In this document: positions 4,070 through 27,030 of the stretch, piece after piece
How the letters are laid out: every line of letters begins with the position of its first letter
How positions within the stretch are numbered: position 1 is the first letter of the stretch
Assembly (NCBI RefSeq): GCF_006345805.1
Contig: NC_043009.1
Span: 33,108,001 to 33,172,000, forward strand
Length of the DNA stretch: 64,000 nucleotides
Reading direction: 5' to 3'
DNA from: Octopus sinensis
Lineage: Eukaryota
Position numbers and translations under genes: made by a program
Notes under the pieces: generated by a model
The model's input: the letters and a program-made list of their open reading frames with translations, nothing else
Databases searched by the model: none
Told to the model about the DNA's origin: nothing

Positions 4070-4825
<756 letters not shown>

Positions 4826-23953: not shown

Positions 23954-24001
<48 letters not shown>

Positions 24002-24006
<5 letters not shown>

Positions 24007-24447
24007 TATTAGAGACAAAACCACTATTTTGCAAAACAAACAAGGAAAGACTTAATCAATACATAAAATTTTAATAAATAGTCAAAAAAACCGCCACTAC
24101 AATCGTTTCTTGTCTTGATCGACAATCTTCAGGTGGACTTCCAATAATTCAGTTACAAATTATGAATAATTATTACAGTATTATTACAGTATTATTATTA
24201 CAAATTATTACTTCATAATTTGTAACTGAATTATTGGAAGTCCACCTGAAGATTGTCGATCAAGACAAGAACGATTGTAGTGGCGGTTTTTTTTGACTAT
24301 TTATTAAAATTTTATGTATTGATAAGTCTTTCCTTGTTTGTTTTGCAAAATAGTGGTTTTGTCTCTTATAATATTATAATATTTTACTATAAAATTGGAT
24401 TTAATCCTAAATCTGATTTTTTCTGTAAATTTGGATTTATTCCCAAT

Positions 24448-25161: not shown

Positions 25162-26189
25162 AAACAGATTAGGTGGAAAGAAGACTAAGGAAGTTCCTTG
25201 TGAAAGCAGAATAGTGAGGGGGAGGGAAATAAATTGTGATTGAGACGGTGGATTGGAGAGAGAGGGAGAGAGAGAGAGAAATCGGAAGTTGTAAGGGTGT
25301 GAGCAAAGACGAAGGAGGGAACTGAGTGAAAGAGGAGGAGGAGAATAATGAGGAGGGGAAGAAAAAGGAAGAGGAGGAGCAGTGGGAGGAAATGGATGTA
25401 GAGTGATGAATGGTGTTAGGAAGAGAGGGGTTTGACAGAAATGAGAGAAAGAGATAGATGTTGACTGAGTTGTAAGACAGAGAGAGAGAGAGAAGAGATA
25501 GTTTAAAGTTAGTGACGGTGAGAGTAAGAGATGTACTTGGGAGAGATTCAGAGATAGAAGGAGGAGAGCGTGAGTAGGAGGACACGTTATAAGAAGTGGT
25601 GGGAGTAAAGATGGATATAGAGGGAGGAGGAACAGGGAGAGGGGGAGGAGAAGAAGAAGAAGAAGAAGAAGAAGAAGAAGAAGAAAAAGAAGTTGAAGAA
25701 GAAGAAGAAGAAGAAGAAGAAGAAGAAGAAGAAGAAGAAAAGAGTTGCGAGTGTTTGATCTATATATATTCAACTACAGAGAGGTAATGGATGAAGGGGA
25801 GGGATTAGAGTGCAAATATAATTAATAATTACTTTTCTGGGGAGGTGAACAAGTGAAAGGGGGAGAGAGAGAGAGAGAGAGAGAGAGAGGAGGAAGAGAG
25901 AGAGAGAGAGAGTAAGTGAGGGTGTGCGAGAGATAATTCGATGTCGTAAGTGATAAGTTCGAAAGAATGTGACTAGGTGGATTGGTGAATTTTGGGAGTG
26001 ATGGTCATGGAAAATTTTAAAATCTATAAAGCAAAAATACTATAAGGTTTGTGTGTGTGTATCTATACGTGTGTGTGTATGCATATGTATTTGTATGTAT
26101 GTATGTATGTATGTATGTATATATATATATTTGTATATGCATGTATGTATGTATATATAAATGTATTTATATATATAGAAATATATATG

Positions 26190-26381
26190 AATAAGTGTCA
26201 GTGAACAGGTCGCGGATTTTAGCGACGAAAATATTTTGACAAATTAAACTTATATGTTGAAGTGAATCGAACGGCTTTTGTGTGTTTCTTAAATGGCTTA
26301 TAAACACCTTCCACGCTGCAATTGTTTTCGTTTCAGCACAGGATCTCAGATCAAATTACTTGCTATGCGAGTACATCTCCG

Positions 26382-26384
<3 letters not shown>
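26190..26384 (+). mobile_element. Solo PLE pseudo-LTR-like insert between (TA)n tracts
   Basis: About 195 bp of complex sequence starting at the G3-C8 HHR motif and bounded by TA microsatellites. Confidence 0.6.
26196..26241 (+). ncRNA. Minimal type I hammerhead ribozyme motif, G3-C8 core variant
   Basis: UGUCA GUGAACA G GUCGC GGAUUUUA GCGAC GAA AAUAUU U UGACA: 5-bp stem I, 5-bp stem II, palindromic AAUAUU stem III. Confidence 0.72.
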
Positions 26385-26424
<40 letters not shown>

Positions 26425-26599: not shown

Positions 26600-27030
26600 A
26601 ATAATTTCTTAAGTAACGAAAAGTTGAATTTGATATTAATCTTTATTTTGTACAATGGTCGTTTCGACCCATCCTGCTTACTGTTCCTTATGGGTGGGAT
26701 CCTGTTCAACATGTGTTGCATCCATTTTGCAGCCTGCTTCTCATCAGGTACATAAAGGTTTGGGTTTCATTAAAGATCCTGAGTTTTGGCTGGCATGTAT
26801 AGAGACGGGCAAATAACAACATGCCAGCCAAAACTCAGGATCTTTAATGAGACCCAAACCTTTATGTATGGATGTACTTGATGAGAACCAGGCTGCAAAC
26901 TGGACATAACACAACATGTTGAACTGGGTCCCACCCATAAGGGACAATAAGCAGGATAGGTTGAAATGACTATTGTACAAAATAAAGATTAATACCAAAT
27001 CCATCTTCTGGTAACTTAACAAAATATTAT
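26600..27030. mobile_element. Diverged fold-back hairpin (probable PLE pseudo-LTR) with a split hammerhead-like motif
   Basis: About 200-bp inverted arms (26600-26798 / 26819-27030). The left arm on the minus strand reads UGUAC CUGAUGA-[75 nt]-GAAACGACCAUU GUACA. Confidence 0.75.

Follow-up and report, generated by a model that had tools for sequence, protein, structure and literature searches.

A short Penelope-like element copy in the Octopus sinensis genome carries a hammerhead motif with a G3-C8 core and a predicted slow, conditional cleavage

The window, the whole stretch of DNA that was analysed, comprises 64,000 nucleotides of Octopus sinensis (assembly GCF_006345805.1, contig NC_043009.1, positions 33,108,001 to 33,172,000 of the forward strand). 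At 26196-26384 on the plus strand it holds an insert of about 190 bases that reads as the leader/pseudo-LTR end of a Penelope-like element (PLE), clipped on its 5' side. An AT-rich microsatellite (26050-26188) precedes it and an (AT)n tract (26384-26418) follows at the 3' junction as the target (strand not applicable to either), in keeping with an earlier note on the letters of this stretch, which had placed it between (TA)n tracts. That note let the insert begin a few bases before stem I of a hammerhead motif; homology to the family in fact sets in with 26196, where the 5-bp stem itself begins. Longer copies have seven pairs in stem I and a usual 5' end 18 nt further upstream, so the window copy is clipped inside stem I. 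Flanks vary from copy to copy. On the plus strand, an open frame at 26293-26385 gives the first 31 codons of the element ORF from a presumed start ATG at 26293. A 'tail' occupies 26326-26384 (+), between the two preferred 3' ends of copies (~26326 and ~26384), which are probably start sites of reverse transcription. Just downstream of the insert, at about 26640-26990, lies a long imperfect inverted repeat with arms of about 170 bp, which may represent a MITE or the inverted end of another retroelement. Another head-to-head pair in inverted orientation, from a different repeat family, sits between TA tracts at 24001-24375; on its minus strand, at 24132, it has a type I hammerhead with a canonical C3-G8 core, A17 and no extra nucleotide, and related pieces were found in several other genomic loci examined.

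The motif at 26196-26241 is a minimal type I hammerhead on the plus strand, with the stems, core, extra G and AAUAUU palindrome that the earlier note had described. Stem I retains five of the family's seven pairs: its 5' strand (26196-26200) forms five Watson-Crick pairs with 26237-26241 of the 3' strand (26237-26243). The core strand GUGAACA (26201-26207) supplies G3 U4 G5 A6 A7 C8 A9, in which G3-C8 replaces C3-G8. An extra nucleotide, G at 26208, stands between A9 and G10.1 and is followed by stem II (five pairs, 26209-26213 with 26222-26226) and its 8-nt loop II (26214-26221), where subfamilies diverge. GAAA at 26227-26230 provides G12 A13 A14, numbered after the hammerhead consensus; the palindromic helix III AAUAUU, from A15.1 to U16.1, spans 26230-26235, and U17 (26236) completes a UUU triplet with a predicted cut after 26236.

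Every position that defines a minimal type I PLE hammerhead was found here (U4 G5 A6 N7 N8 A9, G12 A13 A14, A15.1-U16.1 and H17), together with a Watson-Crick 3-8 pair, the extra nucleotide at 9/10.1, G10.1-C11.1 and the palindromic helix III. Since U3-A8 members have been published, it is the 3-8 pair, not the letters C3/G8, that serves as the criterion for PLE hammerheads. A strict descriptor of 5+5 Watson-Crick pairs and a core with any paired 3/8 matched the window only at 26201, and had 0 matches in 60 block-shuffled windows. Stems I and II are part of the minimum-energy fold. The folding energy of the whole 195-nt piece was no better than that of shuffles (z -0.22), and an Rfam search gave no hammerhead match at E<=10, only simple-repeat miRNA noise. 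When two copies were cofolded by a method that ignores tertiary contacts and protein, the minimum-energy dimer was strand-swapped with AAUAUU unpaired, and no helix III dimer was formed. By every sequence test the motif is a PLE pseudo-LTR hammerhead, of which cleavage is a prediction.

The family of this insert, referred to here as family A, is large. In the 2.72-Gb genome, an 18-mer spanning stem I, the core and stem II had 5,840 exact matches (control 0) and a 28-mer at the ORF start had 7,720. The best family copies agreed with 26196-26384 at 93-99%, and the 30 best full matches were 94-100% identical. The swapped core proved to be family-wide, with stems and spacing conserved among copies rather than lost. 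In the class with the young loop II, 1,576 of 1,648 matches had both G3 and C8; C8 was present in 1,597 matches, 21 of them without G3, and absent from 51, where position 8 was G (30), T (15) or A (6). The 30 of 51 changes to G compare with a 14% background share of C>G (binomial p about 1e-13). C3-G8 was absent among these 51 matches and among 69 older-loop matches with G8. The extra nucleotide at 26208 varied among A, T and C in 187 older-loop matches. Loop II positions 26216-26220 distinguish the subfamilies, whereas variation in core and stems does not exceed background or CpG levels, in a comparison whose core columns were partly fixed by the selection of loci.

G8 was found on several backgrounds and was confined to one arm in 13 of the 14 pair rows with a G8 arm, which leaves a single lineage of G3.G8 copies unsupported. 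A putative small old sub-lineage has G8 in 6 of 22 copies, and the old full-length copies observed have G3.G8 in their 5' pseudo-LTR (L228, and L094/L225/L226, which are probably one or two independent loci). The C8>G excess may mean either that G3.G8 source elements coexisted with the others or that position 8 is a copying hot spot. U3.G8 was considered as the ancestor of family A and set aside, as only two family-A copies have it (L272, L287) and decay of G3.G8 could give that number. In contigs from four public runs with four organism codes, C8 was dominant and no variant reached 5% at G3 or C8. A drop in contig depth across the cut site was rejected as evidence of cleavage, because loop II differences clip contigs there.

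Judged by sequence continuity and reading frame, the insert is the leader plus the first 31 codons of an autonomous PLE, the part that forms the pseudo-LTR. In the tandem copies L228, L225, L094 and L086, the end sequence represented by the window insert continues straight into the ORF, the cut site lies 56 nt upstream of the next ORF's ATG, and the ATG at 26293 with its 31 codons is in frame with the RT-EN ORF in L228 and L086. Copies are 95-99% identical to the end of elements with an intact ORF. The hammerhead also recurs about 0.9-1.05 kb downstream of the stop codon of an ORF that combines RT and GIY-YIG; at L033 it follows, by about 1 kb, the end of an ORF with a Cys linker and GIY-YIG domain, and a 1-kb inverted copy is present as well. 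At the same locus (about 4240-4270, minus strand), sequence resembling a branch point, a pyrimidine tract and an AG acceptor stands right upstream of the copies' common 5' end. Among the 30 best loci for the endonuclease region, 25 carry the DNA element within a 1.5-kb flank, which supports the linkage to PLE ORFs proposed as a check in the earlier note and bears out its view of the insert as a solo pseudo-LTR-type copy. We rejected a MITE reading, suggested by a short inverted match between the insert's two ends, because the piece runs on into the ORF.

The open frame at L081 is 1,042 aa long. The C-terminal 213 aa of the element's ORF matched GIY-YIG in Pfam (E 3.2e-5), and Pfam gave no match on the whole ORF; from motifs read by eye, it probably also contains an RT. 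The ORF has a CX3CX2C linker between RT and EN plus a CCHH motif. Features of EN+ PLEs are present: a pseudo-LTR from tandem arrangement, an inverted 5' copy and a tail at one end. A CX2-5CxxC linker and microsatellite targets, features of the Neptune clade of which the linker is common to Nematis, were both observed, and from such motifs we presume a Neptune-type PLE. A 576-aa open frame at L041 (41-1771, plus strand) gave no match in a Pfam search and presumably represents the RT thumb plus GIY-YIG of another PLE clade.

Sister families were found by protein search and placed in a FastTree tree of 31 of the 55 rows, spanning the families and restricted to copies of this genome. Two of them, B and C, form clades with a support of 100. 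Family C (2,505 matches) has U3-A8, AAUU and UUU, with U3-A8 in 93 of the first 100 matches listed. Family B (3,446 matches) has C3-G8 with U or C at position 17, and at position 9 the first 100 matches listed had C in about 82 and A in 16. The C thus mostly replaces the normally invariant A9 in a PLE family with intact ORFs, whose loci include L202, L204 and L206. A fourth family, D (L271-L300), is old and decayed, shares stems I and II with family A and had no ORF within 1.5 kb; it is mostly U3.G8, with T3 in 31, C3 in 8 and A3 in 4 of 43 matches that include a few B-like and A copies. At L088 (about 2142, minus strand), an unrelated inverted pair also encloses a canonical C3-G8 hammerhead with a GUC site.

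Across nine aligned rows from these families, 93.5% of cells pair, compared with 81.8% in shuffles, and 6 of 12 pairs change on both sides. Pair 3-8 is paired in all nine rows and takes four forms (C-G, G-C, U-A and U.G), while U4 G5 A6, G12 A13 A14 and A15.1-U16.1 are invariant and position 17 is only U or C. The rows are few and related, and two of the nine (D296, Blike275) were selected with a pattern in which part of the stems is fixed, so the covariation is counted as support and not as a probability. With that weight, the alignment supports a hammerhead fold under selection across families, in which pair 3-8 covaries.

The ends of the copies bear on how they were made. At the 3' side, the two preferred sites account for the ends of 230 among 255 distinct copies, 104 at about 26326 and 126 at about 26384; TA runs follow 119 of these 230 ends, versus 3 of the 25 ends elsewhere. 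Copies stand alone or head-to-head, with a few same-strand pairs within 1 kb among the matches listed, and 62 of 76 head-to-head pair rows combine one short and one long arm. The 5' ends were read from the first 100 anchor matches on contig C1, which represent 98 distinct arms. Because the anchor is downstream of the cut, copies of cut templates would have been counted. It was observed that 88 of the 98 arms extend 5' of 26237, which points to uncut templates for these copies. Starts fell at the equivalents of 26174-26196, about 40-60 nt upstream of the cut site, in 67 arms and at 26220-26227, in the 3' strand of stem II, in 10. There was no pile-up at the cut site, with 4 arms starting within 26233-26241 and one of them at 26237.

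Among arms starting at 26178, 11 of 15 are preceded by G where long copies have C or T, and the bases further upstream are not common to the copies. Genome-wide, the base before the common start was G in 716 matches and A, C or T in 1,014. In the first 100 listed of the non-G matches there were 77 templated C, 15 A and 8 T; with some three-quarters of the 1,014 thus being templated C, G makes up about 75% of the non-templated bases. Copying of the cap as G into cDNA is known for other retroelements. From this pattern, a capped RNA likely starts at the A equivalent to 26178, 18 nt before the 5-bp stem I, with its cap copied as G. Splicing could instead set the common 5' end of the copies, with an intron end or a promoter possible at this point; in D. 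virilis Penelope, an internal promoter and an intron both occupy the corresponding place (PMC2377424, PMC4209133). Taken with the 3' ends, the copies are likely cDNAs of an uncut, capped leader that was primed at two internal sites. Five of 57 pair rows in which both loops are visible, from four loci, join a young-loop arm to an older-loop arm, and head-to-head pairs with arms from different loop II subfamilies were seen at L193, L198, L026 and L034. Such mixed pairs suggest two RNA templates per insertion, successive insertions being the alternative.

Much of this architecture has precedents. Cervera and de la Pena (2014, PMC4209133) already described the extra nucleotide 9/10.1, G10.1-C11.1, a palindromic helix III and U3-A8 for PLE hammerheads. 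Their metazoan pseudo-LTR motifs share with ours the pseudo-LTR position and the frequent U17, as well as mostly solo copies plus opposite-strand pairs, and the D. virilis palindrome is likewise 6 nt. The earlier note had called the UUU triplet atypical, but U17 occurs in 24 of 56 published PLE-type examples and an oyster PLE has UUU (PMC4209133, Fig. S3). It is the G3-C8 core that differs: as presented in the accessible parts of PMC4209133, those 56 examples comprise 53 C3-G8, 2 U3-A8 and 1 U3.G8, with none G3-C8, and the descriptors required CUGANGA or the U3-A8 form. Natural U3-A8 hammerheads (Perreault et al. 2011, PMC3088659; S. mansoni Cercyon) likewise show a natural compensatory 3-8 change, which has its counterpart in the U3-A8 sister family of the present genome. 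Unlike these, G3-C8 requires two transversions via an unpaired state. U3-A8 is the only natural core variant reported in the accessible text of PMC3088659, and no natural G3-C8 appeared in the available portions of PMC6765202, PMC6155905, PMC7229834, PMC10085705 and bioRxiv 10.64898/2026.07.22.740005. Our literature search, of incomplete coverage and with a prior report possible, returned only engineered G3-C8; as far as searched, the G3-C8 family and its sister series are new.

The engineered form comes from Poseidon PAc of Anolis (Frangieh et al. 2024, PMC11167929), whose C3G/G8C mutant has the core found naturally here. According to the sections of that study available, C3G/G8C partly restores the PLE hammerhead, and cleavage is protein-assisted and is not needed for insertion; partial activity of engineered G3-C8 is also given in PMC8495972 and PMC3884650. 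PAc shares with our element a hammerhead adjoining the ORF start, AT-rich targets, at which PAc cuts and extends both strands, and a pair of internal RT starts bounding the tail, which were shown in vitro and explain it (PMC11167929). The two-site 3' ends of our copies match both this two-start priming and the PLE tail (PMC8557442). PAc belongs to a different clade, without the Cys linker; its tail is 30-40 nt versus about 58 nt here, and its ATG lies inside the hammerhead rather than 56 nt after the cut site. Neptune-clade PLEs as described by Craig et al. (2021, PMC8557442) share the C-terminal GIY-YIG, the CX3CX2C linker, the CCHH motif, the (TA)n bias, the inverted 5' copy and the tail at one end only; on this description, the linker and the CCHH motif are compatible with either Neptune or Nematis. 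Animal non-LTR retrozymes (PMC7229834; bioRxiv 10.64898/2026.07.22.740005) are also short, high-copy and PLE-related with a type I hammerhead, but they are tandem non-coding units, whereas here a coding-element fragment occurs solo or inverted.

We favour, with a probability of about 0.62, the reading of the insert as a short leader copy from an autonomous PLE, whose G3-C8 hammerhead is predicted to be slow and conditional and to leave the RNA mostly uncut. Slow, conditional cleavage on its own is a prediction that we consider somewhat better than even. Because almost every sampled copy reaches across the predicted cut site, a slow cutter is likely. A capped transcript would start 18 nt ahead of the 5-bp stem I, and the element's protein would nick (TA)n DNA and prime reverse transcription from the two sites within the RNA. 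Copying would then run back across the uncut hammerhead to the cap, producing thousands of solo or head-to-head inserts of 150-205 bp, while priming in the downstream pseudo-LTR would give long copies. For a cut after U17, either a second RNA that pairs through AAUAUU or the element's protein would be required, and the ORF would thereby lose the capped leader in front of it. The invariant catalytic positions, the restored 3-8 pair, the retention of H17 and the partial activity of engineered G3-C8 point toward a motif that is predicted to cut.

The fold could instead be a catalytically dead relic kept as structure, for example as a site that binds the element's protein or pairs with a second RNA, with the 3-8 pair kept for shape. 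We consider this unlikely, though of some weight. Copies derive from uncut RNA, G3.G8, which is predicted to be dead, is in excess and also sits in old full-length copies, C9 dominates sister family B and U3.G8 dominates the old family D. The C8>G excess, the G3.G8 copies and C9 suggest that catalysis can be lost without stopping spread. In the available text on another PLE, cleavage was dispensable in vitro and no reads ended at the site (PMC11167929). Set against this are the invariance of the catalytic positions over nine rows, a position 17 that is only U or C, and the restoration of pair 3-8 as Watson-Crick in three separate families; this tertiary pair of the hammerhead matters mainly for the active state.

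An efficient ribozyme forming the 5' end of the mRNA is a markedly less probable explanation. HDV-like ribozymes set the 5' end of R2 RNA in this way, and genomic copies would here come from a small uncut fraction. The cut site 56 nt before the ATG would suit this arrangement, as would a near-full-length young copy (L086) that begins about 12 nt after the cut site, and copies of the cut leader would be short and might integrate poorly. However, starts within 26233-26241 are scarce among arms that would have revealed them, rescue by G3-C8 is only partial in vitro (PMC11167929, PMC8495972), and minimal PLE hammerheads cut slowly (PMC4209133), as far as the accessible parts of these papers go. 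A non-autonomous retrozyme would be a small non-coding repeat spreading via circular RNA. This reading, related to the non-autonomous retrozyme-like element that the earlier note had put forward as one option, would account for thousands of short solo copies and for the few same-strand pairs within 1 kb, but is largely refuted by the copies themselves and very improbable: no head-to-tail tandem units with the hammerhead were found at the window locus or at the other loci examined, and the insert, like its solo or head-to-head relatives, is a piece of an autonomous element that holds the first ORF codons.

Returning to the slow, conditional hammerhead, a joint reading of the families may be offered tentatively, at clearly less than even odds. 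The clade would have repeatedly tuned its hammerhead down, to G3-C8, U3-A8 and C9 in three sister families, since copying that starts from priming sites downstream of the ribozyme is possible only on uncut RNA. G3-C8 might have been reached via transposition-competent U3.G8 and G3.G8 states that are still in the genome, and inverted pairs might each derive from two separate capped RNAs, primed on the two strands of a single break and from differing start sites.

What PLE hammerheads do and how inverted pseudo-LTRs originate are described as open questions in the available parts of PMC8557442 and PMC11167929. G3-C8, so far a laboratory rescue mutant, is the working state in this family of thousands of copies, and descriptors that demand CUGANGA overlook such families. 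The natural U3-A8, C3-G8, C9 and U3.G8 relatives alongside it form a ready series for gauging the amount of catalysis that a PLE requires. The rule of one short plus one long arm agrees with the priming at two sites observed in vitro in another clade and bears on how inverted pseudo-LTRs form. Finally, the copy ends provide genome-scale evidence of uncut, probably capped templates, and they bear on why PLEs keep a ribozyme.
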